Of a stretch of DNA of 63,999 nucleotides, positions 22,101-63,917 are shown piece after piece. The number at the start of each line of letters is the position of its first letter. Positions within the stretch are counted from its first letter, which is position 1. The notes beneath the pieces were generated by a model. That model was given only the letters and a program-made list of their open reading frames with translations, was not told the DNA's origin and searched no databases. Source of the stretch: a virus (taxonomy: Duplodnaviria; Caudoviricetes); IMG/VR virus record IMGVR_UViG_3300030101_003107, positions 1 through 63,999 of that record. One strand, given 5' to 3'. A program made the translations under genes and the position numbers.

Positions 22101-25100
22101 TTTCATTTATTTCTTGATTAACATAGGTGTAAAGTCCTACTTCAAGATTAACTTTTATATCAGAAGAAGATATAATTTCGTTATTAAAATCAAGTACTGT
22201 TTCTACTAAGTTGTAGTCTTTTAAGTAATTACCATAAACAACTCTATTAGCAGTAACTTCTTGTGCTTTAGCTGATTTTGGCACAGAGTCAAAAGGTCTT
22301 AATATTTGATTAGGATCTATTGTTAAACCTAAAGTATTAGCATTAAAAGGATGTAAGCCTGTATAAGATCCGTTTGCTGGTAAATTATATTCACCATCTC
22401 TAAAATCATATTTTTTTACAGCATATATATTATTTGCTTCTTCACTTTTAACTACCAACTCTACAGCTTTTACATCATGTGGTAAATTTTTTGGTGTCCA
22501 GTCTATTAATCTTAAATCTTTTATTTCATTAATTAAAGATATGTAATAGTTTGGCCAATCTATTTTTTGATTTAAAGTTCTCCAAATAACTGTAGTAAAA
22601 GGCGCAAAGCCAGAGTATTCGTTGTCTTCGTATTGATACCTGTAAGAAAATCTTAACATAGCTTCTCGTAAAGACTTTTCATCAGCTAATCTGCCTGCGC
22701 TGCTACCTTCATATTGAGAAGCTAAACTAACAGACCAAACTTGAGGAAGAGGTGGACCATAAAATTTTGGATTACCTTGAGAGTCAACTAGCAAACCATC
22801 GCGGCCCCAATTTTGATTAGTAGTCCAATAAGGTGATCTTCTGCCTTTGTAATCTTTAGGTAACATTGCTGCGTTTTTAGTACTGTCACCTTCTCCAATA
22901 ATAATAGGGCCTTCATCGCCTGGTCTTACATACTTATTGCTTAAATCAACTCTTAACGATGGATCTAAAGGATCTTTAGCGTTGTTTTCATCTATTTGAA
23001 TAGTAATAATATATTGGCTAATAAAATGCTCTGTAGAGAAAAAACTTGGCGGTAAGTCTACTACTGTACCGTCATCTAATACTATTTCTTCTCCACCAGG
23101 ATCAGTGCCATCAATTATAGTTTGATCAACTAACCCATCATTTAAAAATATAAATTTATCTTTTAAATCAGTATAAACATTACCAAGGTTATCAGTGAAA
23201 CCTACATTGTTAGGAACACCATTTATAACTGCACCAGCTCCTGCTGGGCCTTCAGGCCGCATGTTTACATGCTCTATTTTTGTTATTGTAGCTTTTACTA
23301 AATCAGCAAACCCGTCGTGTCTTCTGCCTGCAAACCGTGTACTATTTAAAAAATTAGCTCCTAGTGGATTTGCAGGGCTATTGAAACTAAGCTCTTGAGT
23401 ATCTCCAAAGTCTTGCCCACCTTGATTGTCTATTGTCCAAAGATCTTCATCTACAAAACCTCCTGTTTCTTCTAAAACCGAAGCAGGTGTGAAAAAGCTA
23501 TTGTCGTCTTCATCTGTATAATAAACATCAGTATATCTACCAACTGCGTTACTTCTTCTAGTATTACCTTGACCTTCTAATACAATTTTGTCACCAACAC
23601 TAAATCCATGAGGTTGAACTACAAATCTTCCAGGCCCTGTAGGTCTATATAAATTATTTTCGTTTAAATCAATTCTACCATTATGCACAAAATCAGCCAT
23701 TGGACCATCGTCAGGATCTCCACCTAAACCCCAATATTCGCTAATAGCAGCTAAATTTTGCGAAGGGCCTGATATATTAGCTTGTGAAAAAAGACCACCT
23801 AAATGATAAGCTTTAGCTATACCGTGCTGATTTGCATAAATAGGTGGGGCAACATCACCATCAAGAAGATACCCTCCAGGCATTTGATTTGTGTAGTGTA
23901 TAACATCACCTTCTGATCCAGCGTTACCACCAAAAGAACTGCCAGGACTAAAAGATACTAGCACGTTTTCATTTACAGAGTTAGCACCTACACCTCTAGT
24001 ACCACCTGCGCCTGAATAATTTTCCCAATAAAACGGCTCTAACGCTTGATTAAAGACACCATCATCTTCAGTAATTCCTGAAGCCATACGCATTGGACCA
24101 ACTGGAATAATATGTCCATCAGTTGGATCATTAAAAAAACCAAAAAGTGGTCCAAGCTCTTGGTAAGAGTCCATACCAGCGTTTAAATAATTTTTAAACA
24201 ATGGGTAAGGCGCTGATGGTTGTGAGTTTGCTTGTACATTTTCAGCTATAGCAGTTGGAAAAACTAAAGACTCTATAGTATATCCGCGTGGATCGTCTTG
24301 ATTAAAAATGTTAGCTGGAACACCAAAAAATCCATTGCCAGCTCCCATTGGATCTAGCGCGCCAGTTCCTGGGGCAGCAGTACCGTAAATACTTCCTCTA
24401 GATGCTTTTACATAAGCGCCCCAAGATAAAGTGTCAGGAATATCAAGAGTCATGCTGTTTCTAAAGTCCATAGCTTGGTTGCCATTTACATCAGCATACG
24501 GAATAAAAGATCTGAAGTTATAATAAGTATCAGGGCCTAAGCCTACTAACGGCTCACCCAGTCCATCGTTAGTAATTAATCCACCGGCTTCGTTATAAAA
24601 ACCAGCTTCGTTTAAAAATGCAACTGCAAACTGTAATGTTTTACCACTTGCGTGGTTTGGATGTATAGGAAAAGGATGCGTCATAACACCTTTAGTTGGA
24701 CCAACTGTTTTAACGTCTGAGTCGCCAACCACAGCACCCACATCAGTTAACACTTTTAAATGCTCTTCTGGATTTGGTCTTATAACAGTACAGTGAGACT
24801 CTATAGTTCCACCTAGCCCTGTATTTATAGCATTGTTTGCTATAACAGCGTTATCGTGATACCCGTTAAACTGCCAACCAGGAACACCTTGAAAGCCTAA
24901 ATTGTTATCAGAGTTTTCTCTTAATAATCTAGTATGAAAAAGTCTTCTATCTGTAAGCCAGTCTGGATATACCGACTGTTGATCAGATAAAGTACCTACT
25001 TTAGATCTATTTATTTGTATTTTTTTAGGTTCGTTTTTATTATCTGTAAAAAATATTAAACCATCAAATACATTTATACCTGTTATATATCTTGAGTAAT

Positions 25101-37354: not shown

Positions 37355-37632
37355 TACCTAGACCTTCCTTCAGCAAATCCTTTAAACACTCTTTCTTTTT
37401 TCTCTTCAGGCTCTTTACCTTCTAGTATATTTTCTTCTTCTTGTATACGGTTAAGTATTTCAAAAGCATCAAATATAGCTAACTTTTTTGTAGCCGCTGC
37501 GTTTTTTAATCTATCAGCTGAAACATCATCTTCAGTATTAGTTATAATTTGCTCTTCAGCAACTTTAATTAACTCTTTAACTGCTTTGTGCCCAGCTTGG
37601 ATTATAAACTTCTTCGTCTCCTTTATATTCAT
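37354..37632 (-). CDS. Putative terminase small subunit
   Basis: Small helical ORF translationally coupled directly upstream of terL. Confidence 0.5.
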   Translation of the reverse strand: MNIKETKKFIIQAGHKAVKELIKVAEEQIITNTEDDVSADRLKNAAATKKLAIFDAFEILNRIQEEENILEGKEPEEKKERVFKGFAEGRSR

Positions 37633-38191
37633 ATTTAATTGTAATAAATTTATTGTGTACTCTAAAAAGTCTTTTACCTTCTAAAACAAACTCATATTGA
37701 GAAAAAGGCGTATAACTAACTACATCACCTTTTTTAAAGTGTTTGTTTCCATACACTACAACTCCTTTGTTAGGATGTTCTACTTTTCTGTTCATAGATA
37801 ACTCTTCTACAAAAGGCTGTACAAAACAATATCCTTCTAAAGGTTTCCAAGTTGCTTCTTTAAATCTACTCCATTTAGCAATTCTACTATAAGCGTATAT
37901 TTGATCTTGCTGCACGAAGTATTTATTATCTTCAAAATAGCTTTTGCTATTTTTTTCTCTACCTTTAACATCATACCATCTTCTAAAAACGTTATGATGA
38001 ACTAAAATTTTATCACCAACTTCTAGTTCTGTTTCACCAAAAGCTGGTAAAGAAATTATTTCAGCAAATCTATTAACGTACTTGTGATCTTCAATACTAG
38101 AGTTTACTATTAGTTCTTTTCCATCTATATCAATAGAGTTTCTATATCTTTTACCAACAGGCTTTACTATGTAGCTATTTATAGCTTTCAC
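37577..38191 (-). CDS. Tandem GroES-like domain protein
   Basis: Two units: YIVKP...LEVGDKILV and KPLEGYCFVQP...KGVVV...KKGDVVSY...EFVLEGKRL. Confidence 0.6.
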   Translation of the reverse strand: MKAINSYIVKPVGKRYRNSIDIDGKELIVNSSIEDHKYVNRFAEIISLPAFGETELEVGDKILVHHNVFRRWYDVKGREKNSKSYFEDNKYFVQQDQIYAYSRIAKWSRFKEATWKPLEGYCFVQPFVEELSMNRKVEHPNKGVVVYGNKHFKKGDVVSYTPFSQYEFVLEGKRLFRVHNKFITIKYEYKGDEEVYNPSWAQSS

Positions 38192-42050: not shown

Positions 42051-42308
42051 TTAATCTACTAGTACAATATCACCTGCTTTGATAACAAAATAAAGCTTAC
42101 CTTCAAATTCTACTCCGTGACCAGCGTGTTTATCATACCAGACAACATCACCATCTTTTATAAATTCTATTAAATTACCAGTTGATATAACTTTACCTTT
42201 AGAATATCTAACGTCTTCGTCAGCATCTTCTTTAATAATTAAGCCAGCAACTTTCTTTTCTGTTTGTTTTATCTTATCGATAACTACATAATAATTAACT
42301 GCCTTCAT
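42051..42308 (-). CDS. groES: Co-chaperonin GroES
   Basis: KVAGLII mobile loop, KGKVISTG, IKDGDVVWY, GDIV; adjacent to groEL. Confidence 0.9.
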   Translation of the reverse strand: MKAVNYYVVIDKIKQTEKKVAGLIIKEDADEDVRYSKGKVISTGNLIEFIKDGDVVWYDKHAGHGVEFEGKLYFVIKAGDIVLVD

Positions 42309-43863
42309 TGATACGTATATTTGAAATTACACAATCAGCAGAAATTATTGTCGATGCTACTGAAGCAGCGTTAGTAAGTGCTGTTTTAGTAACAAGCACA
42401 GGGTCTATGATACCTTCAGATACCATGTCAACAGTTTTTCCAGTTACAACGTTAATGCCTTCACCTTCTTTAGTTGGTAAGTCTGTGTCTGTGGATATAC
42501 CTGCATTATCAAGTATTGTAGCCATAGGCGATATAATAGCGTTAGCTACCACTTGTTCACCGACCGTGTCGGTCGAAATTTTTTGAGATGCGTTAAAGAG
42601 GGCGATGCCGCCTCCTGGCACTATACCTTCTTTCAAAGCAGCTTTAACTGCGTACACAGCATCTTCAACACGATCTCTTTTTTCTTTTAACTCTACTTTA
42701 GAGTTAGCACCTACTTTAACTATAGCTACACTACCAGATAATATAGCAAGCCTGTCTTCTAGCTTCTTCTTCATAAAGCCGTTTTTCTCGTCAGCCACTA
42801 GCTTTGCAACATGATCAATACGTTCTTCTATATCTGAAGTTATCTCTTCTAACGTTATAACAGTATTTTTTTCATCAGTCTTAACAAATTCAGCTTCACC
42901 TAAATGTTCTGGAGTTATAGTATCAAGATCGTCGCCTAAGTCTTCATTAAATAATGTACAGCCAGTTAGTATGGCTACATCTTCACATGTGTCTTTTTTA
43001 GTAGGACCAAAACCAGGCAAGTCAATTATGTTAACTTTAATATTGCCTTTTACTTTGTTCATCATAAGCGCAGACTTAACTTGATCGGCTACTGGCGCTA
43101 TAATTAATAAAGATCTATTATTTTTAATAACATGCTCTAATACTTTTTGTATTTTACGTATGTTAGGTATTTCTGACATACACATTAATATTAGTGGATT
43201 ATCTAAATCACAGCATTGCTTGTCGGTATTAGTTACAAAGTTAGTGGAAATTAAGCCACAATCAAACTGAACACCGTCAACAGTCTCTACGTATGTTTCT
43301 TCTGTATCTGATGTTTCCATAAGTACAACACCGTCTTTACCTACAGTCTTATAAGCTTCTGCTATAATTCTACCTAGCTCTTGATCGTTATTACAGCTAA
43401 TACTAGCTACGTGATCTAACATATCATCATTAACTTCTATTTTAATAGAGTCAAGATATTTGATAATATTAGCTACAGCAGTGTCTATACCTTGCTTAAC
43501 ATCTCTAACATTATTAGTTTGTAATACTTTGTAGACTTCTTGAAGCAAGCTTTCAGCCAAGACGGTAGCCGTTGTGGTACCGTCACCCGCTTCCTTGACT
43601 GTTTTGCTTGCAGCTTCTTTAATGAGAGTGGCGCCAATGTTCTCTACGGGATCTAATAGTGTTACAGATTGCGCGACCGTAACACCATCTTTTGTGATCA
43701 CTGGCTTTCCTCGGCTATCTTCATAGATTACGCACTTGCCAGAAGCGCCGAGAGTTGATTTTACTGCCGATGCTAACTTATTAACACCAGCGATTATTCG
43801 GTTTTTGGCATTATCGCCAAAATTAAGCTCTTTTACGAGCTCACTCGGTAAATTATATTCCAT
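42295..43863 (-). CDS. groEL: Chaperonin GroEL
   Basis: ITKDGVTVA, AGDGTTTATVLA, GVQFDCG, KDRVEDA-like KRDRVEDA, GIVPGGG, GIIDP. Confidence 0.97.
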   Translation of the reverse strand: MEYNLPSELVKELNFGDNAKNRIIAGVNKLASAVKSTLGASGKCVIYEDSRGKPVITKDGVTVAQSVTLLDPVENIGATLIKEAASKTVKEAGDGTTTATVLAESLLQEVYKVLQTNNVRDVKQGIDTAVANIIKYLDSIKIEVNDDMLDHVASISCNNDQELGRIIAEAYKTVGKDGVVLMETSDTEETYVETVDGVQFDCGLISTNFVTNTDKQCCDLDNPLILMCMSEIPNIRKIQKVLEHVIKNNRSLLIIAPVADQVKSALMMNKVKGNIKVNIIDLPGFGPTKKDTCEDVAILTGCTLFNEDLGDDLDTITPEHLGEAEFVKTDEKNTVITLEEITSDIEERIDHVAKLVADEKNGFMKKKLEDRLAILSGSVAIVKVGANSKVELKEKRDRVEDAVYAVKAALKEGIVPGGGIALFNASQKISTDTVGEQVVANAIISPMATILDNAGISTDTDLPTKEGEGINVVTGKTVDMVSEGIIDPVLVTKTALTNAASVASTIISADCVISNIRINEGS

Positions 43864-51290: not shown

Positions 51291-51548
51291 ATGAACGACA
51301 AACAAATGCAAAAGCTAGCTAAATATATAGCAGCAGATCTTACTAAAAGAATTTATGGTATCGCAAACCCTGCTACTGAAGATAATGATATGATGTGGTA
51401 TGCAGACAGAGACGATGACCACGCTGTTGGTGAGTTAGCTAGGCTAATGACACTATTAAATCTATATCAAGACAGAGAAGAATATGAAAAGTGCCATTTA
51501 ATAAACAAGCACATTAAAAAATTAGAAAAAATAATAGAAAACTTATGA
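51291..51548 (+). CDS. Small protein with UVR-like C-terminal hairpin
   Basis: YQDREEYEKCHLI resembles the UvrB/C motif; start uncertain (51291 or 51306). Confidence 0.6.
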   Translation: MNDKQMQKLAKYIAADLTKRIYGIANPATEDNDMMWYADRDDDHAVGELARLMTLLNLYQDREEYEKCHLINKHIKKLEKIIENL

Positions 51549-52417
51549 TGAGAAAAAAACCAATGCTAGCATATCCTGTTAGCGACAAACCAATTGATTA
51601 TACCAAACCTGTATTCATGCAACCAAAGCTTGACGGCGTACGTTGTCTTATACAAGCTGAGCCAGATTACTCAAGTTCTGGTTATCCTATACCTGGTGTT
51701 AGAGTAACAGCTTATTCACGTACAGGTAAAGAGTGGAAAAACATTGACCACATACTACAAAGCCTCAAGCCTTTTTTTGATGCTAACCCTGATGTTATAC
51801 TCGATGGCGAGTTATACAATCATGCGTTACGTGATGACTTTGAAAAGATTATATCTTGTGTACGTAAACAAAAGCCAACAGATGCTGACAGAGCTGAGTC
51901 GCGTAAGCTTGTACAGTTTCACTGTTACGATATTGTAGATGAAACACTTGACTTTCAATCGCGTAGTATAAGACTTAATACATTATTAAAGCCAACATAC
52001 GGTATTAAACTAGTTAAAACTATTGTAACTCCAACAGAGTCCCAAGCTAAAGTTAATCACGCTAGAAACTTAGATGCTGGCTACGAAGGCTCTATACTAC
52101 GTCTAAACGATGTCTATCAATGTAAACGTTCACATAGCTTACGTAAGTTCAAAGACTTTCACGATGCTGAAGCTGTACTAACCGACTGGGTCGAAGGTAA
52201 AGGCAAGCGTGCCGGTACTATTGGCAAGTTCATGGCTGTCGATGCTGATGGTAATGAGTTTGGCATGCCAGTCATGGATAATTTTAAAAAGTTACAAACA
52301 ATGTTTGATGAGATGAAAACTTGGGTTGGTAAAGAAGCTACGTTCACATACTTTGAGCGTACAAAAGCTAACAGCTACAGACATCCATTATTTAAAGCAA
52401 TACGTGATTATGAGTGA
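51545..52417 (+). CDS. lig: ATP-dependent DNA ligase
   Basis: QPKLDGVRC (motif I), LDGELY, FHCYD, GYEGSILR, LRKFK, C-terminal OB fold with RHPLFKAIR. Confidence 0.93.
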   Translation: MMRKKPMLAYPVSDKPIDYTKPVFMQPKLDGVRCLIQAEPDYSSSGYPIPGVRVTAYSRTGKEWKNIDHILQSLKPFFDANPDVILDGELYNHALRDDFEKIISCVRKQKPTDADRAESRKLVQFHCYDIVDETLDFQSRSIRLNTLLKPTYGIKLVKTIVTPTESQAKVNHARNLDAGYEGSILRLNDVYQCKRSHSLRKFKDFHDAEAVLTDWVEGKGKRAGTIGKFMAVDADGNEFGMPVMDNFKKLQTMFDEMKTWVGKEATFTYFERTKANSYRHPLFKAIRDYE

Positions 52418-52519: not shown

Positions 52520-53131
52520 GAGAGAAACCTAACATACCTAAATAATAAACGTTTAATATACAGGCGACATCCAGTATCAGATAAACCAGACATTGATACT
52601 AAAGAGTTTATGTATTTTGAAAACGGTACGCATCAATGCTACGAGCTATTTAGATCAACAGCAAAGATTACTACGTATCGTTCGCTTAAATGGCATTTAC
52701 TAGTACTTTGGTATTTAAACCCTAACCTCAACCAAGACGACTTTATACAACTAGCTGAATATATAGTACACAAGCCAAATGGCTTTGTAAGTTTTAACGT
52801 ATCAGAACGTTTGCTAGAAAAAGTTGTCTACGAGGTTAGCATGTCTGACCTTGATCGTCCACCTAAAAATAAATTACGTAAAGTTATATTTAAACCGTTT
52901 AGTGGCTTAACAAAAGAAATGAAATTATCTATTGTAGGCCAGCTAGTTGGTCAAAGTCCTAGAGTTTGTTCTGACGACATATATGAAGTTATGATAGATA
53001 TGCATGACATGGGCAAAAAGATTACAATAGGACGTATCGCAGGTCTGTTAGACTGTTCGTCACGTACAATATATAGACACATGTGTAACGAACTTAAAAA
53101 AGAAAAAGAATTACTTAACCAACAACTATGA
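52511..53131 (+). CDS. DNA-binding protein with C-terminal HTH (possible initiator or regulator)
   Basis: ITIGRIAGLLDCSSRTIYRHM helix-turn-helix. Confidence 0.75.
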   Translation: MSYERNLTYLNNKRLIYRRHPVSDKPDIDTKEFMYFENGTHQCYELFRSTAKITTYRSLKWHLLVLWYLNPNLNQDDFIQLAEYIVHKPNGFVSFNVSERLLEKVVYEVSMSDLDRPPKNKLRKVIFKPFSGLTKEMKLSIVGQLVGQSPRVCSDDIYEVMIDMHDMGKKITIGRIAGLLDCSSRTIYRHMCNELKKEKELLNQQL

Positions 53132-53880
53132 AACAATACGATTCAAATAATTTTAGCAGGTATAAAAAAGATGTTAAAGCATCTCAACCTAAAAATAAAG
53201 ACTGGCAACACTATAGTAGAGATGAACTTATAGTTAAATTTCTACCTCTTGTAGAAAATATAGCTAGAAAGTTTAATGATGGTGATGCTGCATCTGGCGT
53301 TATGTCGTTAAGTGATTGTATACAATTTGGTAATATTGGACTAACTAAAGCTGTTGATAAAATTATTTGGTCAACAATAACTGAGTCTAAAGATCCTGAA
53401 AGAACTATAAAATCTTATTTATCTAAAAGAATACGAGGCGCAATACGTAGAGCCACAGACGCTAATCGTAGTGGCATGCGTATACCAGAACATAAACTAA
53501 ATGATATACGTAAAAACTTTGAAAATGAAGATAATTCAAAGTTATTTTTTAACTCTATGTTTGAAAGTATAGACAAACAGTTAGACGATGAAAACTCTTA
53601 TTTATATCAAATCGAAGATACTTCAAAAGATCCAATGAGAAAAGAAAAGTTACACGCTGTAATAAGAGATATTATGCTTAAGCATTTAACTGACAAAGAA
53701 TATCATGTTATAAGACTAAGCTATGGTTTAGGTTGTGATAAAATATCTGCAAAACAAATAGCAGAAAAACTTGATATGAAAGGTAGTAGCTCTTATGTTC
53801 GTGTTTCTCAATTAAAAAAGCAAGCGATTGAAAAACTTAGAAATGTTTTAGATCACTCGCAAGTGACTGATTATCTGTAA
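53128..53880 (+). CDS. Sigma70-family RNA polymerase sigma factor (group-3-like)
   Basis: Region 2 RDELIVKFLPLVENIARKF...DCIQFGNIGLTKAVDK...RIRGAI; MRIP; region 4 LTDKEYHVIRLSYGL...IAEKL...RVSQLKKQAIEKLR. Confidence 0.92.
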   Translation: MKQYDSNNFSRYKKDVKASQPKNKDWQHYSRDELIVKFLPLVENIARKFNDGDAASGVMSLSDCIQFGNIGLTKAVDKIIWSTITESKDPERTIKSYLSKRIRGAIRRATDANRSGMRIPEHKLNDIRKNFENEDNSKLFFNSMFESIDKQLDDENSYLYQIEDTSKDPMRKEKLHAVIRDIMLKHLTDKEYHVIRLSYGLGCDKISAKQIAEKLDMKGSSSYVRVSQLKKQAIEKLRNVLDHSQVTDYL

Positions 53881-55699: not shown

Positions 55700-57415
55700 A
55701 TGAACGTACAGGAAAGAGAGATCAATGGATTTACGATTGACCAGTTCAATCAGTATGGCCTAGAAGTTGGGAAGACACAGGGTATATGCCCTACGTGTTC
55801 TCACACTAGGAAACCTGAAAATAGGAAAGCTAAATGTGCTTCTTATGATTGGGAACGTGGTCTTGGTACCTGTCATAACTGTAACACTAGTTTTCAACTT
55901 CACACTTATAAGCGTAAAGGAAACAGCGAGAAGGTTTATATTAGACCTAAGCAAAGTCTTGCACCGAATATGAGTGAGAAAGTTGAAGGCTGGTTTAAAG
56001 ATCGCGGTATATCATCAGCTTCCCTTCGTGACTTAAACGTTACCACAGGTGAAGAATATATGCCGCAGACAGGTAAGTCTGAGAATACCATTCAATTTAA
56101 CTATTACATGGGCGATCAACTCATAAACGTTAAATACCGTGATGGCCGTAAGAATTTTAAACTGTACAAAGGTGCAGAGAAAATATTTTACAACATTAAC
56201 AGTATTGTCGGTTATGACGCTTGTGTCATAGTTGAAGGTGAAATGGACGTGCTTGCAATGCACGAAGCGGGAGTTAAAAACGTTATATCAGTACCTAACG
56301 GTGCTACGTTAAACTCAAACAATCTCGATTATTTAGATAATTGCATAGACTATTTTGATGACAAAGAAAAGATTATATTAGCAGTTGATGCTGATGAGCC
56401 TGGCCAAGCTCTAAGACAAGAATTTATTCGTCGTCTTGGTGCTGAAGTTTGTTATCTAGTCGATTTCGAGGACTGTAAAGACGCAAACGATTATTTAGTT
56501 AAGTATGGAGCTAAAAAGCTCAGAGATGTAATTGATAACGTTAGGCCTGTACCTCTTGAGGGCGTGTCTACATTAAGAGATATTGAAGATGAACTTAAAG
56601 ACTTTGTTAAAAACGGGTTTAAGCCCGGCTTTCAAATCGGACTTAAAAACTTTGATAATGTTTTCTCTACTTACACCGGTCAGTTTATTACTGTTACTGG
56701 CGTACCCAGTAGCGGCAAGTCTGACTTTGTTGACCAAATGGTTGTGGGCTATAATCAACTATACGGTTGGAAAACTGCGTATGCTAGTCCAGAAAACCAA
56801 CCAGTGTATTTACACGCGCACAAACTAATGCGTAAACATTGGCAAGACATGCCAGCTGTAGGCGATATTGGCGGTGATAAATGGCATCAAGTTACTGAAC
56901 ATGTTAATGACAACTACTTCTTTATTGATATGGATAAATATAATTTAGAAGCTGTATTACGTAAAGGCGCTGAGCTTGTTAAACGTAAAGGTATTAAATG
57001 TTTAGTTCTCGATCCATTTAATAAGATCAGAGATGTTAATGCACACTCAGATGACGTCAACCGTTATACAATGGATTATCTAGCTAAGATCGAGGCTTTT
57101 TGTAAGAAGTATGATGTACTAACATTTATTGTAGCGCATCCTACTAAAATGTACAAAGGCCAAGACGGTAAAATGGAAGAGCCAACGATGTATAACATTA
57201 AAGGCGGTGGTGAGTGGTACGATGCTAGTTATCATGGCTTGCTAGTTCATAGAGATTATGAAGCTAAAACAACTAAAGTTAAAGTGCTTAAAGTTAAGTT
57301 TCAAAACCTTGGTGAAAACGGCGCTGAGTCTTTCTTTACATGGGAGCCACGATCTGGTAGCTTTGTACCTCACGTTACATCTGAAGCAGAAGCTGAGCCA
57401 ATGCCTTGGGAATAA
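55700..57415 (+). CDS. T7 gp4 / Twinkle-like primase-helicase
   Basis: Zn finger CPTC...CHNC, TOPRIM VEGEMD...DAD..G, KDAND, Walker A TGVPSSGKS, VLDP, IVAHP. Confidence 0.93.
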   Translation: MNVQEREINGFTIDQFNQYGLEVGKTQGICPTCSHTRKPENRKAKCASYDWERGLGTCHNCNTSFQLHTYKRKGNSEKVYIRPKQSLAPNMSEKVEGWFKDRGISSASLRDLNVTTGEEYMPQTGKSENTIQFNYYMGDQLINVKYRDGRKNFKLYKGAEKIFYNINSIVGYDACVIVEGEMDVLAMHEAGVKNVISVPNGATLNSNNLDYLDNCIDYFDDKEKIILAVDADEPGQALRQEFIRRLGAEVCYLVDFEDCKDANDYLVKYGAKKLRDVIDNVRPVPLEGVSTLRDIEDELKDFVKNGFKPGFQIGLKNFDNVFSTYTGQFITVTGVPSSGKSDFVDQMVVGYNQLYGWKTAYASPENQPVYLHAHKLMRKHWQDMPAVGDIGGDKWHQVTEHVNDNYFFIDMDKYNLEAVLRKGAELVKRKGIKCLVLDPFNKIRDVNAHSDDVNRYTMDYLAKIEAFCKKYDVLTFIVAHPTKMYKGQDGKMEEPTMYNIKGGGEWYDASYHGLLVHRDYEAKTTKVKVLKVKFQNLGENGAESFFTWEPRSGSFVPHVTSEAEAEPMPWE

Positions 57416-57678
57416 TGGCTAAGAGTAAGCCTTTTAAACCTGGACTTCGACCTCTTTCAAAATTAGAATCTAAAATGATACAATGGTGTTTAGACAACAG
57501 CATAGCTTGTTGTGTTATACCTGCTCCAAAATATACAAATTGGGGCGAAGATTACTGTGTTGAAATAGTAATTAATGGTAAGTCAAACTTTAGTCCTAAT
57601 TTTAAAAAGCAAGAAGTATTAGAAAAACAAATTGAATATTATAAATACTATTATGACAAATACAATAAAACAACTTGA
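57406..57678 (+). CDS. Hypothetical protein
   Basis: Operon packing; start may be ATG 57415. Confidence 0.6.
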   Translation: MGIMAKSKPFKPGLRPLSKLESKMIQWCLDNSIACCVIPAPKYTNWGEDYCVEIVINGKSNFSPNFKKQEVLEKQIEYYKYYYDKYNKTT

Positions 57679-57782: not shown

Positions 57783-58460
57783 ATGCATAATAATTTCAAA
57801 ACAGCTAATGAAGCTTTTCATGATTTATACTGGCGTATTGTTCGCGATGGCGTAGACTTTGCTGGAACTAAAGCATTATTTAACGCTGGGTTTTATATTG
57901 AAAATCCTGCATTAAACGATATTAAAGATAGTAAAGTTAAACGTAACTGGTCTATAGATTATGCTGAGGCTGAGTGGCAGTGGTATTTATCTGGCGATCG
58001 TAACATAGCTAAGCTTGGCGAGTTATACGGTAAAGTACCAGCTATATGGAAACGTATGGCTGATGAGTATGATGAAGTAAACTCTAATTACGGTTGGCAA
58101 TGGAAAAGACTACATCAACTAGATAAAGTAATTACTATGCTACGTAGTAATCCTGAAACTAGACAAGCTGCAATATCAATATATGACGGTAAAGAAATAA
58201 GCCAGTACAAGTATGATACACCATGTACATACGCTGTACAGTTTACAGTACTAGATAATAAGCTTAATATGTCTGTTGTAATGCGATCTAATGATCTCTG
58301 GTATGGTTTTTGTAATGATCAGTATCAGTTTTCAAACTTGCAGCTATTAGTTGCTCAGAAGACAGGATATGACGTTGGTACATATTATCATTTTGCGCAT
58401 AACTTACACTTGTATAATGATAAATTACCAGAAGATAAAACTAGAAACTTTCACAAATGA
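57783..58460 (+). CDS. Thymidylate-synthase-superfamily enzyme, predicted dCMP hydroxymethylase/methylase
   Basis: PC catalytic motif, MRSNDLWYGFCND with Asp at the ThyA Asn177 position, NLHLY. Confidence 0.8.
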   Translation: MHNNFKTANEAFHDLYWRIVRDGVDFAGTKALFNAGFYIENPALNDIKDSKVKRNWSIDYAEAEWQWYLSGDRNIAKLGELYGKVPAIWKRMADEYDEVNSNYGWQWKRLHQLDKVITMLRSNPETRQAAISIYDGKEISQYKYDTPCTYAVQFTVLDNKLNMSVVMRSNDLWYGFCNDQYQFSNLQLLVAQKTGYDVGTYYHFAHNLHLYNDKLPEDKTRNFHK

Positions 58461-59260
58461 CGTATGCAATATACCATATACCGGGTGTAAAAATAGGTGT
58501 AACAAACAACATTAAAAGTAGAGTTGAAGAGCAACAAGGCTATAAGCCTAGCGAGTATGAAATACTAGAAATGTCTGACGATATAAATTATATATCTAGA
58601 CGTGAGTTGTATTTACAAGAGCGTTACGGCTATAGAGTTGACAGACAACTATACAAAGAATTATTTAATAACAATTTTATAAAATTAAACAATATGGATA
58701 TAAATGTAACTGAAATGACTACAACATTTCCGTGTCCAGTTAACAAGTTAAAAGGCAGGCTTATGGACAACTTAGGTATGACCTGGGAAACAGATGCTGG
58801 TAAAGTAATGATTACAAAAGAATCTATTAAATGGGTAATGAACAATGTTAAATCATCACAATATACTAACGATAGATGCTATGTATATAACAAGGCTTTT
58901 GCTAGATGGTTTGATAACAATAACCCGTTTGAAGAAACTTGCGATACATACTGCGATGATTGTGGCGATAATATATTTGAGTGTATCAGAATGTGGGCAG
59001 ATGAACGCGGCTTATACGATAAAGGCGATCCAAAAACACAATACATTAAGCTAATGGAAGAGACTGGCGAGATCGGTAGAGCTATATTAAAAGATGACAC
59101 AGCTGAAATAATCGATGGTATTGGCGATGCTGTAGTTGTATTAACTAATCTAGCTGAACTATGCGGCGTACCTATTGAAGAGTGTATACAAGAAGCTTAT
59201 AATGTTATTAGTAAGCGTAAAGGTAAAATGATTAACGGAACATTTGTAAAATATGAGTAG
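58457..59260 (+). CDS. GIY-YIG-like N-domain fused to MazG-like NTP pyrophosphohydrolase
   Basis: AIYHI..VKIGVTNNIKSRVEE...RELYL; C-terminal WADERGL..KLMEETGEI..EIIDGIGD. Confidence 0.8.
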   Translation: MTYAIYHIPGVKIGVTNNIKSRVEEQQGYKPSEYEILEMSDDINYISRRELYLQERYGYRVDRQLYKELFNNNFIKLNNMDINVTEMTTTFPCPVNKLKGRLMDNLGMTWETDAGKVMITKESIKWVMNNVKSSQYTNDRCYVYNKAFARWFDNNNPFEETCDTYCDDCGDNIFECIRMWADERGLYDKGDPKTQYIKLMEETGEIGRAILKDDTAEIIDGIGDAVVVLTNLAELCGVPIEECIQEAYNVISKRKGKMINGTFVKYE

Positions 59261-59564
59261 TAGAGAAATATATGACGGTATGGACGGCGTAACAACACGC
59301 ACGTTTAAATTTAGAGATCCTGTAGTTGATAATGTGTGTAGAGAGTTTGTAAAACGATCTGATGCTGGCTACAAAAAATACGGTTCGACACTTGATGATG
59401 AACGTAGACTTGGTATGAAAAACCTACAAGGCTATTTAAAAGATGTACAAGAAGAGCTAATGGATGCTATATTGTATATACAAGCTGCACGTGAAGAACT
59501 TCAAGACTTATCTGAGGAAGCTTTGATTAATAAGTTTGATGATGATGAGAAAGAAGCGTACTAA
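59253..59564 (+). CDS. All-alpha NTP-pyrophosphatase-like small protein
   Basis: RSDAGYKKYGSTLD...QEELMDAILY. Confidence 0.65.
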   Translation: MSSREIYDGMDGVTTRTFKFRDPVVDNVCREFVKRSDAGYKKYGSTLDDERRLGMKNLQGYLKDVQEELMDAILYIQAAREELQDLSEEALINKFDDDEKEAY

Positions 59565-59988
59565 AAAAAGAGGTCCAGTTAGAGCTAAACGCGTAAGACA
59601 AGACGGTATTAACTTTGCTTCAGGGCTAGAGCGCTATATGTATCTAGCTCTGAAAAAAGCAAAGATCAAAGCTGTATACGAAGGTGAAACTTACATTGTA
59701 CAAGAAGGCTTTGAGTTTATGCAATCAGCTTACGAAAAACAAGCTAATGGTAAGGGCGAATATAAAAACAGAGGAAATAAAAAAATACTACCAGTTAAAT
59801 ATACTCCAGACTTTGTTGGTAAGGACTTTATAATAGAGTGTAAAGGTCGAGCAAACGAAAGTTTTCCAATGCGATGGAAAATGTTTAAAAAGTACGTAAA
59901 AGAAAATTTACCACATGTAACTTTATATAAACCTCAAAATCAAAAAGACTGCGACGAAACAATTAAACTTATTCAAAATGAAAAATGA
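59542..59988 (+). CDS. T7 endonuclease I-like Holliday junction resolvase
   Basis: FASGLE, YEGE, YTPDF, IIECKG; exact start Met uncertain (59536-59545). Confidence 0.8.
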   Translation: MMRKKRTKKRGPVRAKRVRQDGINFASGLERYMYLALKKAKIKAVYEGETYIVQEGFEFMQSAYEKQANGKGEYKNRGNKKILPVKYTPDFVGKDFIIECKGRANESFPMRWKMFKKYVKENLPHVTLYKPQNQKDCDETIKLIQNEK

Positions 59989-60122: not shown

Positions 60123-61976
60123 ATGAATAACATACTATCAGACATTACTGTTCACATGAAGTATGCTAAGTATATTCCAGAGCTTAATCGCCGGGAAACT
60201 TGGACTGAGCTTGTTGATCGTAATGTAGCAATGCATAAAAAGAAATACCCTAACCTAATAGACCAAATAGATGAAGCATATAAGTTTGTATATGATAAAA
60301 AAGTTTTACCAAGCATGCGATCATTACAGTTTGCAGGTAAGCCTATTGAAATATCCCCTAATCGCTTATACAACTGTAGTTATTTGCCTGCTGATAGTGT
60401 CGACGCTTTTAATGAAATAATGTTTTTACTTCTATCTGGTTGTGGCGTAGGCTACTCAGTACAACAGCATCATATTAAAAAGCTACCAGCTATTATTAAG
60501 CCGTTTGACAAACGTAGTAGACGTTTTGTTATTGGCGACAGTATTGAAGGCTGGTCTGACGCTGTTAAAGTATTAATAAAATCTTATTTAGGTAACAAAC
60601 GTACGTCTAAAATAGTATTTGATTATACAGACATAAGACCTAAAGGCGCAAGACTTGTAACGTCAGGTGGTAAAGCACCTGGTCCACAACCATTAAAAGA
60701 GTGTTTAACTAAAATAGAAGGAATATTAAATGATAAAAAAGATAGCACAATACTTACCTCACTTGAGGTCCATGATATTATATGCCATATTGCTGACGCT
60801 GTTCTTGCTGGTGGCATACGCCGCGCAGCTTTAATTGCTTTGTTTTCAGCTTACGATGAAGACATGATAGCTTGTAAGTCTGGTAGTTGGTGGGAGTTAA
60901 ATCCACAACGCGGTAGAGCTAATAACTCAGCTGTACTTATGAGACATAAAATAACTAAAGACTTTTTTATAGACCTATGGAAACGTGTTGAGTTATCTGG
61001 CGCAGGTGAACCTGGTATATATTTAAATAACGATAAAGACTGGGGTACAAATCCATGCTGCGAAATAGCTTTACGTCCGTTTCAGTTTTGTAACTTGTGT
61101 GAAGTAAACGTATCTGATCTTGAAAGTCAAAATGATTTAAACGAAAGAGTTAAAGCCGCAGCGTTTATAGGTACGTTACAAGCTAGTTACACTGACTTTC
61201 ATTATTTAAGAGAAATATGGAAAGAGACAACAGAAAAAGACGCGCTTATAGGTGTGTCAATGACAGGGATAGGGAGTGCCGCTGTGCTCCAGCTGGATAT
61301 GAAGGCAGCTGCAAGTATCGTAAAAAGAGAGAACACGAGAGTAGCAAAGCTATTGGGCATAAACAAAAGCGCTAGATGTACAACTGTAAAACCTGCAGGG
61401 ACGACTTCTCTGGTGCTAGGAACATCATCTGGTATTCACGCGTGGCATAATGATTATTATGTCCGTAGGATGCGCGTAGGAAAGAACGAGGCTATATATA
61501 CATATCTTAATATTAATCACCCTGAACTAATTGAAGATGAGTACTTCAGACCTCATGATACGGCCGTTATATCTGTACCGCAAAAAGCACCTGATAATTC
61601 TATACTTAGAACTGAGTCGCCGTTTGATACACTTGACCGTGTTAAGCGTGTAGCTACTGAGTGGGTTAAGCCAGGTCACAGAGCTGGTAGTAATACACAT
61701 AATGTATCTGCAACAATATCGTTAAAAGATAATGAGTGGGAGGCTGCTGGCGAGTGGATGTGGTTAAATAAAGATTATTATAACGGTTTATCTGTATTGC
61801 CTTACAATGGCGGTACGTACACTCAAGCTCCGTTTGAGGACATTAGCGAAGCTGAGTTTAATAAAATGTCCAAAGTATTATCTGAAGTTGACTTAACAAA
61901 AGTTATTGAAACTGATGATAACACAGATCTATCAGGCGAGCTTGCTTGTGCTGGTGGCAACTGTGAAATTGTTTAA
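60123..61976 (+). CDS. nrdJ: Class II (adenosylcobalamin-dependent) ribonucleotide reductase
   Basis: LPSMRSLQFAG, YNC, GCGVG, IRRAALI, TNPCCEI, CNLCE, TVKPAGT, C-terminal CAGGNC; no beta subunit gene seen. Confidence 0.9.
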   Translation: MNNILSDITVHMKYAKYIPELNRRETWTELVDRNVAMHKKKYPNLIDQIDEAYKFVYDKKVLPSMRSLQFAGKPIEISPNRLYNCSYLPADSVDAFNEIMFLLLSGCGVGYSVQQHHIKKLPAIIKPFDKRSRRFVIGDSIEGWSDAVKVLIKSYLGNKRTSKIVFDYTDIRPKGARLVTSGGKAPGPQPLKECLTKIEGILNDKKDSTILTSLEVHDIICHIADAVLAGGIRRAALIALFSAYDEDMIACKSGSWWELNPQRGRANNSAVLMRHKITKDFFIDLWKRVELSGAGEPGIYLNNDKDWGTNPCCEIALRPFQFCNLCEVNVSDLESQNDLNERVKAAAFIGTLQASYTDFHYLREIWKETTEKDALIGVSMTGIGSAAVLQLDMKAAASIVKRENTRVAKLLGINKSARCTTVKPAGTTSLVLGTSSGIHAWHNDYYVRRMRVGKNEAIYTYLNINHPELIEDEYFRPHDTAVISVPQKAPDNSILRTESPFDTLDRVKRVATEWVKPGHRAGSNTHNVSATISLKDNEWEAAGEWMWLNKDYYNGLSVLPYNGGTYTQAPFEDISEAEFNKMSKVLSEVDLTKVIETDDNTDLSGELACAGGNCEIV

Positions 61977-61992
61977 TTAAATTTTATTTACT

Positions 61993-62184
61993 ATGACTGA
62001 ATTACAAAGAATGTATAATGAGATGTTAGTTACCTTAGAAAAAGGTATTGAAGATCTTGAAAAGTTTGAAGATGGAAATATGTCTGCTGGAACTAGGGTT
62101 CGCAAGACAATGCAAACAACTAAAGAGTTAGCCCAACAAATACGGGTTACAGTTCAAGAACAAAAAAATGCTGTTGTAGCATAA
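61993..62184 (+). CDS. Histone-H1-like (Hc1-type) small protein
   Basis: EKFEDGNMSAGTRVRK...KELAQQIR matches my recollection of Bacteroidota Hc1-like proteins. Confidence 0.7.
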   Translation: MTELQRMYNEMLVTLEKGIEDLEKFEDGNMSAGTRVRKTMQTTKELAQQIRVTVQEQKNAVVA

Positions 62185-62190
62185 AATAAT

Positions 62191-62216
62191 AGAGGGCTTT
62201 TTAGCCCTCTTTTTTT
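62191..62216 (+). terminator. Terminator at the convergence of the two arms
   Basis: AGAGGGCT-TTTT-AGCCCTCT followed by T6; overlaps the stop of 62201..62434. Confidence 0.85.
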
Positions 62217-62434
62217 GTACCTTTACCATCATTACCACGATTAGCTTTTATAGATTTAAACTTACCGTCTTTATGATCGTAATCTTTTCCTTTTATATTT
62301 ACACCAGCTTTTAATGCTGCTCTACGTTTACGTTGGTTTTCTGCTTTTTTCTTTTTACGCTCTTCTGTCATTGCTGCTCGCTTATCACGAATAGCTTTCA
62401 TGCGTCTAGCTGTTGGTGTTAACTTTTGACTCAT
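62201..62434 (-). CDS. Small basic protein, possibly degenerate HNH
   Basis: GKDYDHKDG...KANRG. Confidence 0.6.
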   Translation of the reverse strand: MSQKLTPTARRMKAIRDKRAAMTEERKKKKAENQRKRRAALKAGVNIKGKDYDHKDGKFKSIKANRGNDGKGTKKEG

Positions 62435-63201
62435 GCTTCACCACATTTTTTACTTGGATTACTAACTTGCACCCAGTTTTCTTTTTGAAACCAATCACGT
62501 AGTGTAGCACCTTTTTTACGAGCACCTTTAACATTTGATTTTGAAGATCTTTTATATTTACCTTTGTTAGCTGCAGATCTTTTAGCTGAAACAACTCTTC
62601 TACGCTCTTCAGGCGACATGTTCATGACTTTAGCTTTAGGTAAACAAACTTTTTTAGTTCCTCCGCCTTTAACTTTACTTCTTCTGCCGCTTCTTCTTCT
62701 ACGTCTTGTAAAAGCAGAATTAAGTTCTGCTTCTTCAAACCTTGAATATGATCTAGGTTTAGGTGGCTCTCCAGTTTTTAAAGTTTGTAAAGCTTCTTGT
62801 TGAGTTACTAAGCCAGCAGATATACGCTTAGTATCTTTTTCTAAAGTTCTTTCTTTTGTAGCTTTATCACTGCGAGCTGTTCTTTCTAATCTTTCTTTTT
62901 CTTGTTGCTCTTTCTTTTTTCTTTCTGCTTCTTTTTTTTCTTGAAACTCTTGCTCTTTTCTTATTCTTCTTTCTTCGTTTAAAGCTAATTGGTTTTCTGC
63001 TGCTTCTGCGCCTAGTTGAGCACCAGTTTTTCTACCAATACCAAAAACATTGCTTTGACCTGGCGTAAACATCGGGCCAAACGCAGCAGTAAAAGTAGTT
63101 CCAACAGCAAGCGGATTACCACTAGTTAAACCTGCAAATGTACTTACAGCGGTACCTAAATCACTACCAGCTACGTTTTGTTTTTTAGGACTTTTTGCCA
63201 T
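62431..63201 (-). CDS. Basic modular protein
   Basis: Gly/Ala N-terminus, coiled coil, C-terminal VCLPKAK...LRDWFQKENWV module recalled from marine viral proteins. Confidence 0.7.
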   Translation of the reverse strand: MAKSPKKQNVAGSDLGTAVSTFAGLTSGNPLAVGTTFTAAFGPMFTPGQSNVFGIGRKTGAQLGAEAAENQLALNEERRIRKEQEFQEKKEAERKKKEQQEKERLERTARSDKATKERTLEKDTKRISAGLVTQQEALQTLKTGEPPKPRSYSRFEEAELNSAFTRRRRRSGRRSKVKGGGTKKVCLPKAKVMNMSPEERRRVVSAKRSAANKGKYKRSSKSNVKGARKKGATLRDWFQKENWVQVSNPSKKCGEA

Positions 63202-63643
63202 GTTGTTTTTTTAATTGTTTTTTAGCAGCTCTTGCAAGTCTTGCTTGTTCCATTTTACCCATAACCTCAGCTCTTTGTTCTAATACAGTTAGTATCTGTA
63301 TTTTTCTAGCATAAGGTTTATTTATTCTTTTAACTTTAGCTATTGTAGCTCTAGCATCAGCAACAGTAGCAAACTTAATACTTACTGTATCTTTTGGATT
63401 TTCATCTGTATACAGCCGTCTATCTGAGCCTTTAGGTTTTTTACCTGTGCCAACTACAGGATCTTTACGCTTGTTAGGTGAAGGCCTATTAGTTTGCATG
63501 TTTATAAACCAATTGCACAACTGCTTATCACGAGGTGTAGCTCCAGGTCTAGCTTTTAACTTTTTACATTTTTCAATAGTTACATCACCACCATACACTT
63601 TAGCAATACGTGCTTTTAATACGCCTCTATAAGCTTTACTCAT
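63185..63643 (-). CDS. Basic conserved viral protein
   Basis: GTGKKPKGSDRRLYTDENPKDTVSIKF...QILTVLEQRA module recalled from marine viruses. Confidence 0.7.
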   Translation of the reverse strand: MSKAYRGVLKARIAKVYGGDVTIEKCKKLKARPGATPRDKQLCNWFINMQTNRPSPNKRKDPVVGTGKKPKGSDRRLYTDENPKDTVSIKFATVADARATIAKVKRINKPYARKIQILTVLEQRAEVMGKMEQARLARAAKKQLKKQHGKKS

Positions 63644-63917
63644 CTTTCTTTTTACCTAATCGTTTTCTAACTATATTCATAACAGTCTTCATTTTACGAG
63701 CATAGCTAGGATTTTTACCTCTATTAAAAACATACTGTTGATTTAAACTACTAATAATTTTAGATAAATTACCTTTACGAGTTTTAATTAACCAGCTAGC
63801 TAATGCTTGAGTTGACAAGTTTTTAAACTTGCCTTTAGCATCAGGTGCGTCTGAGTCATGCCACTCTATAGACTTTGAAGTTTTTTTCTTTTTATTAGGC
63901 GATGAATATATAGCCAT
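63636..63917 (-). CDS. Small basic protein
   Basis: Its ATG overlaps the PAP2 gene stop across the circular junction (63917 corresponds to 18). Confidence 0.7.
   Translation of the reverse strand: MAIYSSPNKKKKTSKSIEWHDSDAPDAKGKFKNLSTQALASWLIKTRKGNLSKIISSLNQQYVFNRGKNPSYARKMKTVMNIVRKRLGKKKDE

Follow-up and report, generated by a model that had tools for sequence, protein, structure and literature searches.

A predicted dCMP hydroxymethylase and a linked MazG fusion protein in an uncultured marine Bacteroidota podophage

The genome of the tailed virus (Caudoviricetes) deposited as IMG/VR record IMGVR_UViG_3300030101_003107, which was analysed over its whole length of 63,999 bp and is referred to here as the window (a complete virus record, with a completeness of 99% according to CheckV), carries a gene of the thymidylate synthase (TS) family ThyA that is followed, with overlapping ends, by a gene ending in a MazG domain. 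The question raised by this locus is whether the TS homolog makes thymidylate or instead acts on deoxycytidine monophosphate (dCMP) and prepares a modified cytosine for the phage DNA. An earlier note on the same DNA proposed a cytosine-modification module of three genes making 5-hydroxymethylcytosine (5hmC) or 5-methylcytosine (5mC). The dCMP-directed ThyA homolog and its MazG partner of that proposal are supported here and the product is narrowed to the hydroxymethyl type, while the pyrophosphatase-like label of the third gene, of 103 amino acids (aa), finds no support. As a whole, a minimal, host-dependent 5hmC pathway built from a dCMP hydroxymethylase of the T4 gp42 type and a MazG protein, and leading to modified virion DNA, is given a probability of about 60% from the sequence evidence described below.

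The ThyA-family enzyme and its diagnostic residues

The enzyme and the codons on which its reading depends are the following:
57783..58460, + strand: ThyA-family enzyme of 225 aa, predicted dCMP hydroxymethylase (5-hydroxymethyl-dCMP, or 5hmdCMP, synthase), PF00303, with the residue signature DCTDD
58215..58226, + strand: D145-T-P-C148, with Asp at the position of E. coli Leu143 (hydroxymethyl type) and the catalytic Cys
58293..58295, + strand: Asp171, equivalent to E. coli Asp169 and retained, where 5-hydroxy-dCMP synthases would have Asn
58317..58319, + strand: Asp179 (codon GAT), cytosine-specifying residue aligned with E. coli Asn177 and T4 Asp179

The protein matches PF00303 (Thymidylat_synt) with 103.6 bits, against a cut-off of 24.3, and reaches at best 88.1 bits with the ThyA equivalog models of NCBIfam, for which the cut-off is 327. 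Its best sequence matches in the PDB are nearly tied between a ThyA (6auj, 5.7e-19), the CMP hydroxymethylase MilA (5b6d, 2.4e-17), and the T4 dCMP hydroxymethylase (1b49, 6e-17). The residues expected of the PF00303 superfamily are present, namely C148, R168 and S169 (the phosphate site Arg166/Ser167), Y103 (Tyr94), and E64 (Glu58), and are invariant or nearly so in a set of 81 sequences that comprises the window and 80 IMG/VR relatives with 63-81% identity to it.

The earlier note had placed an Asp, encoded at 58317-58319, where ThyA has Asn177, and this placement is confirmed by the translation, by an alignment of ten sequences, and by the conservation of the residue in 81/81 sequences. The motif RSNDLWYGFCND corresponds to residues 168-179 (nucleotides 58284-58319), residue 179 being the Asp, which aligns with Asn177 of E. 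coli ThyA (QRSCDVFLGLPFN) and with Asp179 of T4 gp42 (MRSNDVVFGFRND). The columns were placed by HMMER alignments to solved structures together with the ten-sequence MAFFT alignment.

The meaning of these columns has been addressed in two published sources. In PMC13326640, three positions of viral ThyA homologs are given a reading: position 177, where Asn indicates deoxyuridine monophosphate (dUMP) and Asp indicates dCMP; position 143, where Leu goes with a methyl product and Asp or Glu with a hydroxymethyl product, a correlation in the words of its authors; and position 169, which is normally Asp and becomes Asn in the flavin-dependent 5-hydroxy-dCMP synthases. In the MetaGPA study (PMC8670742), the strongest association with cytosine-modified viral contigs is that of the residues at 177 and 147, which in the window are D and T. 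Applied to the window, the N177D, L143D/E, and D169N rules point to a dCMP substrate and a hydroxymethyl product, and the earlier statement that Asp at this position specifies dCMP, as in T4 gp42, agrees both with the rules of the two sources and with the gp42 column. Read at the columns of E. coli residues 143/146/147/169/177, the window and the reference enzymes compare as follows (enzyme; product; residues):

Window; predicted 5hm-dCMP; DCTDD
T4 gp42; 5hm-dCMP; DCTDD
VPE25; product not assayed; DCTDD
BF486P2, both copies; product not assayed; DCTDD
RB69 gp48; 5ho-dCMP; ECTND
SPO1 gp29; 5hm-dUMP; DCNDN
PaMx74; 5m-dCMP type; NCPDD
E. coli ThyA; thymidine monophosphate (dTMP); LCHDN

Beyond these five columns, the 11 tabulated residues near the substrate C5 (E. 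coli 80, 94, 143, 146, 147, 165, 167, 168, 169, 173, and 177) are identical between the window and T4 gp42 (11/11), while five of them differ between the window and E. coli ThyA. The acidic residue at position 143 (D145 in the window) is found likewise in T4 gp42 (D145), SPO1 gp29, and VPE25. In ThyA, a C-terminal segment closes over the folate. The window protein reaches only as far as E. coli residue ~221 of 264 and, as in T4 gp42 and RB69 gp48, the ThyA tail is missing, while PaMx74 retains it. The protein is thus very probably a dCMP-directed enzyme that adds one carbon at C5 and is not a ThyA. If so, its residues make a hydroxymethyl product a good deal more probable than a methyl one.

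This signature is shared by a large group of viral proteins. At least 599 viral-contig stretches were matched, at least 596 of which encode a relative, and the 120 best protein clusters are all at least 80% identical and, when named, are called 'thymidylate synthase'. Residues E64, Y103, R127, D145, C148, T149, S169, N170, D171, G175, and D179 are invariant in the 81 sequences; the presence of Asp179 in all of them indicates that the substitution has not arisen by chance. An exhaustive HMMER search returned 8,513 proteins at E<=0.001, from which the 150 best representatives of 50%-identity clusters were taken. Among the 112 of these that are full-length (190 aa or longer), Asp occupies both 177 and 169 in 112/112 and the complete DCTDD signature is found in 101/112.

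The phylogeny suggested in the earlier note as a check, with ThyA and hydroxymethylases as references, places the window with T4 gp42 and apart from ThyA and PaMx74. In a FastTree phylogeny of 122 rows, E. coli ThyA and PaMx74 are split from all other sequences (starred value 97), and the window shares two starred sets, of 19 and 22 rows, with copy a of BF486P2. The same split is repeated in an IQ-TREE phylogeny of 40 rows (starred value 99), where the window and T4 gp42 fall within one set of 18 rows (starred value 96). A clade of the window with ThyA and PaMx74 is rejected by the approximately unbiased (AU) test, with a delta lnL of 48.9 and p 0.0037. RB69 gp48 appears as a distant long branch in both trees, each of which holds one reference per functional class.

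The MazG fusion and the genes around the pair

The gene that follows encodes a fusion protein:
58457..59260, + strand: 267-aa fusion with an N-terminal T5orf172/MUG113 (GIY-YIG-like) part, a middle domain without family, and a C-terminal MazG domain (~nucleotides 58964-59257)

Its start overlaps the stop codon of the TS gene (ATGA), and the MazG domain is confined to the C-terminal ~95 residues. The label of MazG-like that the earlier note had given to this second gene therefore stands for that part of the protein (PF03819), which is a real MazG/all-alpha nucleoside triphosphate (NTP) pyrophosphohydrolase domain. PF03819 scores 25.4 bits on the fusion, against a cut-off of 22, and matches 33/34 members of its family, 28/34 of which also match PRA-PH, and the profile of the fusion matches PDB 1vmg with an E-value of 1.5e-07. 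The AlphaFold2 model (predicted local distance difference test score, pLDDT, 87) was matched by VIA to M. tuberculosis MazG with Z 10.2 (root-mean-square deviation 2.2 A over 89 residues) and to S-2L MazZ with Z 8.6. Foldseek returned many MazG-fold matches, HisE and DCTPP1/mouse dCTPase among them; DCTPP1 did not stand out, and none had an E-value <0.001. Residues E201, E202, E205, D220, and D224 form an invariant acidic set, as expected for metal binding, within the MazG domain. A preference of this domain for deoxycytidine triphosphate (dCTP) would be suggested only by the gene linkage described below.

The N-terminal third of the fusion gives weak matches to T5orf172 in 8/34 members and to MUG113 in 9/34, to which a language-model lead from the ESM Atlas can be added. 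The N-terminal ~165 residues are conserved, with Y6, G14, T16, R22, and E50 nearly invariant; the whole-model fold searches were dominated by the MazG domain and thus barely probed this part.

The third gene of the proposed module and the other genes of this region are the following:
51545..52417, + strand: ATP-dependent DNA ligase (PF01068 + PF14743)
55700..57415, + strand: primase-helicase, upstream of TS
57406..57678, + strand: 90-aa open reading frame (ORF) between the primase-helicase and TS, without family and found in part of the relatives
59253..59564, + strand: 103-aa conserved helical protein without assigned function, core motif RS..G..KYG...E...K.L..YL.D.QEE.MDA.LY
59536..59988, + strand: DUF1064/resolvase-like endonuclease in the same gene string (PF06356 3.3e-07; phrog_190)
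60123..61976, + strand: class II (B12-dependent) ribonucleotide reductase (phrog_367 2.4e-131)

The second pyrophosphatase-like label of the earlier note, given to the 103-aa gene, could not be reproduced. None of 25 family members (0/25) matches an NTP-pyrophosphatase family, and the few Pfam matches are to unrelated families at E 0.018 or weaker. A profile search found no sequence match in the PDB, and hhalign gives a probability of 1% for kinship with the MazG family. The AlphaFold2 model (pLDDT 72.5) shows a simple hairpin of helices, without any match that looks catalytic; the structures retrieved for it by Foldseek and VIA were all single helices or coiled coils, and nothing in the ESM Atlas supported an NTP pyrophosphatase. 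The candidate is consequently left without support from the Pfam, PDB, fold, hhalign, or Atlas searches, and the 103-aa ORF may nonetheless be a remote relative of these enzymes.

Gene order was counted among the 80 relatives, in those loci with enough flanking sequence. A MazG homolog is adjacent to TS in 71/73 loci, fused in 67 and stand-alone in 4, and a homolog of the 103-aa gene lies downstream within 2.2 kb of TS in 61/68. The primase-helicase is upstream of TS in 48/53 relatives, and the class II reductase is present in 36/56. Four loci belong to other phage backbones, with a terminase of the Terminase_3 type, and in these TS is still found beside a MazG of ~100 aa; one has a dCMP deaminase between TS and MazG, and one has an upstream enzyme dependent on pyridoxal phosphate (PLP). 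The pairing of TS and MazG on different backbones argues for a linkage that is functional and not merely inherited. Among the variants of this gene order, in L050 (5258-8645) the member of the TS clade comes after a PLP-dependent enzyme and two ORFs of ~300 aa without assigned function, and L021 (7477-9378) shows the string DUF6378-TS-dCMP deaminase-MazG; DUF6378 also precedes TS in L076.

With respect to the remaining neighbours, the best model for the reductase is that of the NTP-reductase type RTPR (TIGR02505), with 283 bits and below the cut-off of 340. The domain pair of the ligase, PF01068 + PF14743, has been associated by MetaGPA with cytosine-modified contigs (PMC8670742).

The rest of the pathway is not seen in the genome. 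Pfam and PHROG searches of the window ORFs of 70 aa or more recovered no DNA polymerase, nucleotide kinase, glycosyltransferase, carbamoyltransferase, deaminase, or dihydrofolate reductase (DHFR), and no PLP or radical S-adenosylmethionine (radical-SAM) domain. A search of the six frames of the window for Walker-A/P-loop sequences found the helicase only, and six-frame searches with DNA_pol_A and DNA_pol_B were empty. The earlier note, which had recognised no deoxynucleoside monophosphate (dNMP) kinase, glycosyltransferase, or DNA polymerase, is in agreement with these searches. DNA_pol_A is also absent from 5/5 relatives rated 100% complete, so the absences appear to be a trait of the lineage. 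The window thus shows no recognisable form of the phage kinase, glucosyltransferase, and polymerase that complete a hydroxymethylcytosine system of the T4 type.

A host-dependent pathway, its objections, and its rivals

The mechanism that would follow from these genes begins with the attack of Cys148 on C6 of dCMP, with Asp179 reading the N3/N4 face of the cytosine and methylene-tetrahydrofolate donating one carbon. In this enzyme the active site would stay open, since Asp145 replaces the water-excluding Leu143 and the tail that closes over the folate is missing; water, and not hydride, would then resolve the exocyclic methylene, and the product would be 5-hydroxymethyl-dCMP. The translationally coupled MazG protein would most likely hydrolyse dCTP to dCMP and pyrophosphate, leaving the replisome short of dCTP while supplying the hydroxymethylase with its substrate. 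This dCTP may come from the phage class II reductase, which would deliver it directly if it is of the NTP type. Host kinases would convert 5hmdCMP into the triphosphate 5hmdCTP, the host replicative polymerase would incorporate it into phage DNA, and the outcome would be a non-glycosylated 5hmC DNA resisting many restriction enzymes. The polymerase step gains plausibility from the reported incorporation of 5hmdCTP in vivo by the replicative polymerase of E. coli (bioRxiv 10.1101/2024.12.05.627091).

Several points weigh against this pathway. Neither the six-frame P-loop search nor Pfam/PHROG found a dNMP kinase in the window, and T4 needs its own gp1 for this step. In PMC13326640, related synthases expressed in E. 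coli without a phage kinase gave only a trace of modified base, which makes the host-kinase step doubtful. As for the hydroxymethyl product, the rule at position 143 is only a correlation for the authors of the same source, and the sole methyl-type dCMP enzyme aligned, that of PaMx74, has Asn and not a hydrophobic residue at this position. Similarity to the window decided which rows entered the trees, and the group submitted to the AU test was defined only once a first tree was available. On the side of MazG, hhalign found no link between the fusion and T4 gp56 (probability 0.8%), the whole fusion is covered by 0/1,086 cultured-phage records, and the nearest cultured-phage relatives of its MazG domain (33-49% identity) belong to phages of Streptococcus (328 records), Staphylococcus (308), and others. 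These Streptococcus and Staphylococcus phages are not known to have modified DNA, and the MazG domain by itself thus says nothing about dCTP.

A further objection comes from palindrome counts, which were compared between the window, the pooled relatives, T4, PaMx74, MW202828, and BF486P2. In the window, GATATC is observed 0 times against 17.3 expected (z -4.2) and CATATG once against 11.3 expected. The pooled relatives hold 72 copies of GATATC against 283 expected (observed-to-expected ratio about 0.26) and avoid GATATC, GGTACC, GAATTC, GAGCTC, and GGATCC with ratios of 0.24-0.40. Such avoidance of C-containing palindromes indicates that restriction pressure persists. EcoRV and NdeI are among the few enzymes cutting hydroxymethylcytosine DNA. 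In T4, too, over its first 50 kb, no 6-mer palindrome is avoided more strongly than GATATC. The overall palindrome avoidance of the 5mC phage PaMx74 is comparable to that of the window, and because of this the counts are uninformative on modification.

Other readings of the locus differ in the chemistry assigned to the enzyme. An ordinary thymidylate synthase converting dUMP to dTMP is what the source databases state; it would account for the PF00303 match and would give the phage the only TS that it has. It is nevertheless highly improbable, since Asn177 has become Asp in 81/81 sequences, Leu143, His147, Gln165, and Cys168 have all changed to the residues of T4 gp42, the C-terminal 43 residues are absent, and the equivalog scores amount to a quarter of the cut-offs. 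Just as little can be expected of a flavin-dependent 5-hydroxy-dCMP synthase like RB69 gp48 or DLP3 gp80: the window and RB69 gp48 have in common N177D, acidity at position 143, and an early C-terminal end, but the D169N change is missing (Asp171 is kept in 81/81), the window has no arabinose/hexose pathway and no glycosyltransferase, and RB69 gp48 stands far away on its long branch. A dCMP methyltransferase of the Xp12/PaMx74 type, which would make 5-methyl-dCMP and 5mC DNA, finds more in its favour: Asp177 is common to the window and PaMx74, PaMx74 too pairs a pyrophosphohydrolase with TS and has nrdJ and a ligase, and N177D mutants of ThyA make 5-methyl-dCMP (PMC8670742). This reading is unlikely given that the window has Asp at 143, Thr and not Pro at 147, and no ThyA-like tail, that it lacks the DHFR and the dCMP deaminase flanking the PaMx74 gene, and that the trees, with one 5mC-type reference, split PaMx74 and ThyA from the window with the AU support given above.

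A small but real chance is left to a variant in which 5hmdCMP is made and the final base is then hypermodified or processed by proteins without known family (the 103-aa protein, the 90-aa ORF, or the N-terminus of the fusion), or in which the substitution is partial. The linkage of the 103-aa gene in 61/68 loci and the conserved N-terminal ~165 residues of the fusion would fit such a role, as would the fact that close TS relatives lie beside a carbamoyltransferase (BF486P2), a glucosyltransferase (VPE25), and a PLP-dependent enzyme (L050). Against it, the window ORFs of 70 aa or more hold no transferase, kinase, or PLP/radical-SAM domain, and the 103-aa model shows nothing beyond its helical hairpin. 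The hydroxymethyl pathway ending in bare 5hmC is the reading preferred here.

A broader picture can tentatively be drawn, although it is rather doubtful. Marine Bacteroidota podophages of a large clade, counted at 596 IMG/VR contigs or more, might replace cytosine with bare 5hmC by means of two dedicated phage genes, without a kinase, polymerase, or glycosyltransferase of their own. The fused GIY-YIG-like domain might in addition nick or bind unmodified host DNA, in which case a single polypeptide would couple the removal of cytosine-containing DNA with that of dCTP. Endonuclease II and gp56 of T4 would be a functional parallel to this combination.

The phage, its relatives, and known cytosine-modifying systems

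Judging by its genes, the window is a complete Bacteroidota podophage of 64 kb. Its large terminase shares 65% identity with the one of the uncultured podovirus MW202828.1 and ~45% with the terminases of Flavobacterium 'elemo' phages; Flavobacterium accounts for 68 of the 87 matching records, the others being Cellulophaga, Tenacibaculum, and Maribacter phages. A 603-aa protein (5065-6876, - strand) with a C-terminal sorting domain of type IX secretion (PF18962, 2.1e-11) also points to a Bacteroidota host. The window sequence is present in 20 public runs from 12 studies, all of them marine, seawater, or estuary metagenomes stored as contigs, and no DNA near-identical to it was found in the phage collection. 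The TS homolog is absent from MW202828.1, the closest relative by terminase, and in the TS tblastn search Flavobacterium, despite its 68 terminase records, does not figure in the ten most frequent organism names, so no cultured member of this lineage with the TS gene was found.

Other features of this genome include phage-encoded GroEL (PF00118, 4.9e-59; 42295-43863, - strand) and GroES (PF00166; 42051-42308, - strand), together with a second protein of 204 aa from the PHROG 'co-chaperonin GroES' family (37577-38191, - strand). Two giant virion proteins are encoded on the - strand, one of 2,459 aa (9386-16765) without any family and one of 2,515 aa (19162-26709) whose N-terminus matches the muzzle protein of crAss viruses (PF25731, 9.5e-10). 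A histone H1-like Hc1 protein (PF07432, 2.2e-15; 61993-62184, + strand) is followed on the opposite strand by four very Lys/Arg-rich ORFs of 77, 256, 152, and 93 aa without family (62201-63917, - strand), which may be DNA-condensing or ejected proteins. A PAP2-family phosphatase lies at the left genome end (18-557, - strand), and a sigma-70-family factor with regions 2 and 4 (53128-53880, + strand), also found in relative L040, lies inside the replication/recombination gene block.

Assigning Asp177 ThyA homologs to cytosine modification is established practice, and cytosine modification is a known kind of anti-restriction trick. What is apparently new is a very large uncultured clade of marine Bacteroidota podophages that has the DCTDD enzyme and the GIY-YIG-like-MazG fusion and seemingly nothing else of the pathway; no paper on this clade or on a marine module of dCMP hydroxymethylase and MazG was found in the literature searched, which left subscription journals outside its scope. 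If the proposal is true, hundreds of genomes of abundant marine phages of flavobacterial type, annotated as carrying a 'thymidylate synthase', would hold a cytosine-replacement pathway, with effects on how their DNA behaves in library preparation, bisulfite or enzymatic conversion, and nanopore base-calling. It would also change the reading of these phages as carriers of an 'auxiliary metabolic gene'. Pre-replicative substitution by 5hmC could then run on host kinases and the host polymerase, for which the host CMP/dCMP kinase, nucleoside diphosphate kinase, and Pol III would have to take 5-hydroxymethyl-deoxycytidine nucleotides as substrates. The DCTDD signature at E. coli positions 143/146/147/169/177 would offer a simple residue rule for re-annotating the clade.

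Among the known systems, T4 gp42 (PDB 1b49) belongs to the same fold family and shares with the window enzyme, besides the 11 residues near C5 and the truncated C-terminus, even the numbering of D145, C148, T149, D171, and D179. The two proteins are only 27% identical, however, and the window protein is without the loop that holds Arg21 in E. coli and a Lys in T4. The partner of gp42 is the NTP pyrophosphatase gp56, which supplies dCMP and removes dCTP, while that of the window enzyme is a MazG protein with no detectable kinship to gp56. T4 further differs in having the gp1-type kinase, the alpha/beta-glucosyltransferase, and a DNA polymerase of its own.

The closest cultured homolog is that of the Bacteroides phage BF486P2 (OP172667.1; WAX06796.1), which infects the same host phylum, with 50-52% identity, the DCTDD residues, and a place in the same starred clade. 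Its module (L002:6641-9123), whose genes are all annotated as 'hypothetical', holds in addition a second TS homolog, a 611-aa carbamoyltransferase (PF16861 1.3e-34, PF02543), an AAA_28 kinase-like protein, and a dUTPase-fold protein, all of which the window lacks. This combination of genes has been linked to 5-carbamoyloxymethylcytosine made from 5hmC (PMC8670742), and the layout in BF486P2 looks like such a pathway in a cultured gut phage; no publication on the DNA of this phage was found in the literature searched. The Asp177 TS class of MetaGPA (eLife 2021, PMC8670742), a study with 433 sequences, resembles the window in having Asp at 177, a residue other than His at 147, and a PRA-PH/MazG pyrophosphohydrolase and an ATP-dependent ligase on the contig, with TS co-occurring with PRA-PH in the cytosine-modified contigs; it differs in its carbamoyltransferase and dCMP deaminase, which are missing from the window.

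A homolog of a different type is found in the Maribacter phage Molly_1 (L087:2617-5110), which reads DCTDN and has Asn177 and Asp143, as SPO1 gp29 does. Its gene shares an overlap with a 'beta glucosyl transferase' gene and adjoins those of UDP-sugar enzymes, an arrangement that suggests glycosylated 5-hydroxymethyluracil rather than thymidylate synthesis.

The TS of the Enterococcus phages VPE25/VFW is 36% identical to the window enzyme and has the DCTDD residues, and the DNA of these phages has been found experimentally to resist bisulfite conversion and restriction. Downstream of TS, VPE25 has genes for a dUTPase, then a beta-glucosyltransferase, then a sugar-nucleotide enzyme; the first two set it apart from the window phage, as do its thymidine kinase and a Pol III alpha of its own. 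The module of Pseudomonas phage PaMx74 and Xanthomonas phage Xp12 has, like the window, a pair of pyrophosphohydrolase and Asp177 TS together with nrdJ and a ligase. Contrary to the window, PaMx74 has Asn143, Pro147, the ThyA tail, and its own polymerase, its enzyme lies across the branch with starred values of 97-99, and its gene string continues from pyrophosphohydrolase and TS to a dCMP deaminase and a DHFR. The comparison with VPE25, BF486P2, and PaMx74 indicates that the pairing of an NTP pyrophosphatase with an adjacent Asp177 TS recurs in cytosine-modifying phages, while the gene that comes next, for a glycosyltransferase, a carbamoyltransferase, or no transferase at all, varies from one to another.

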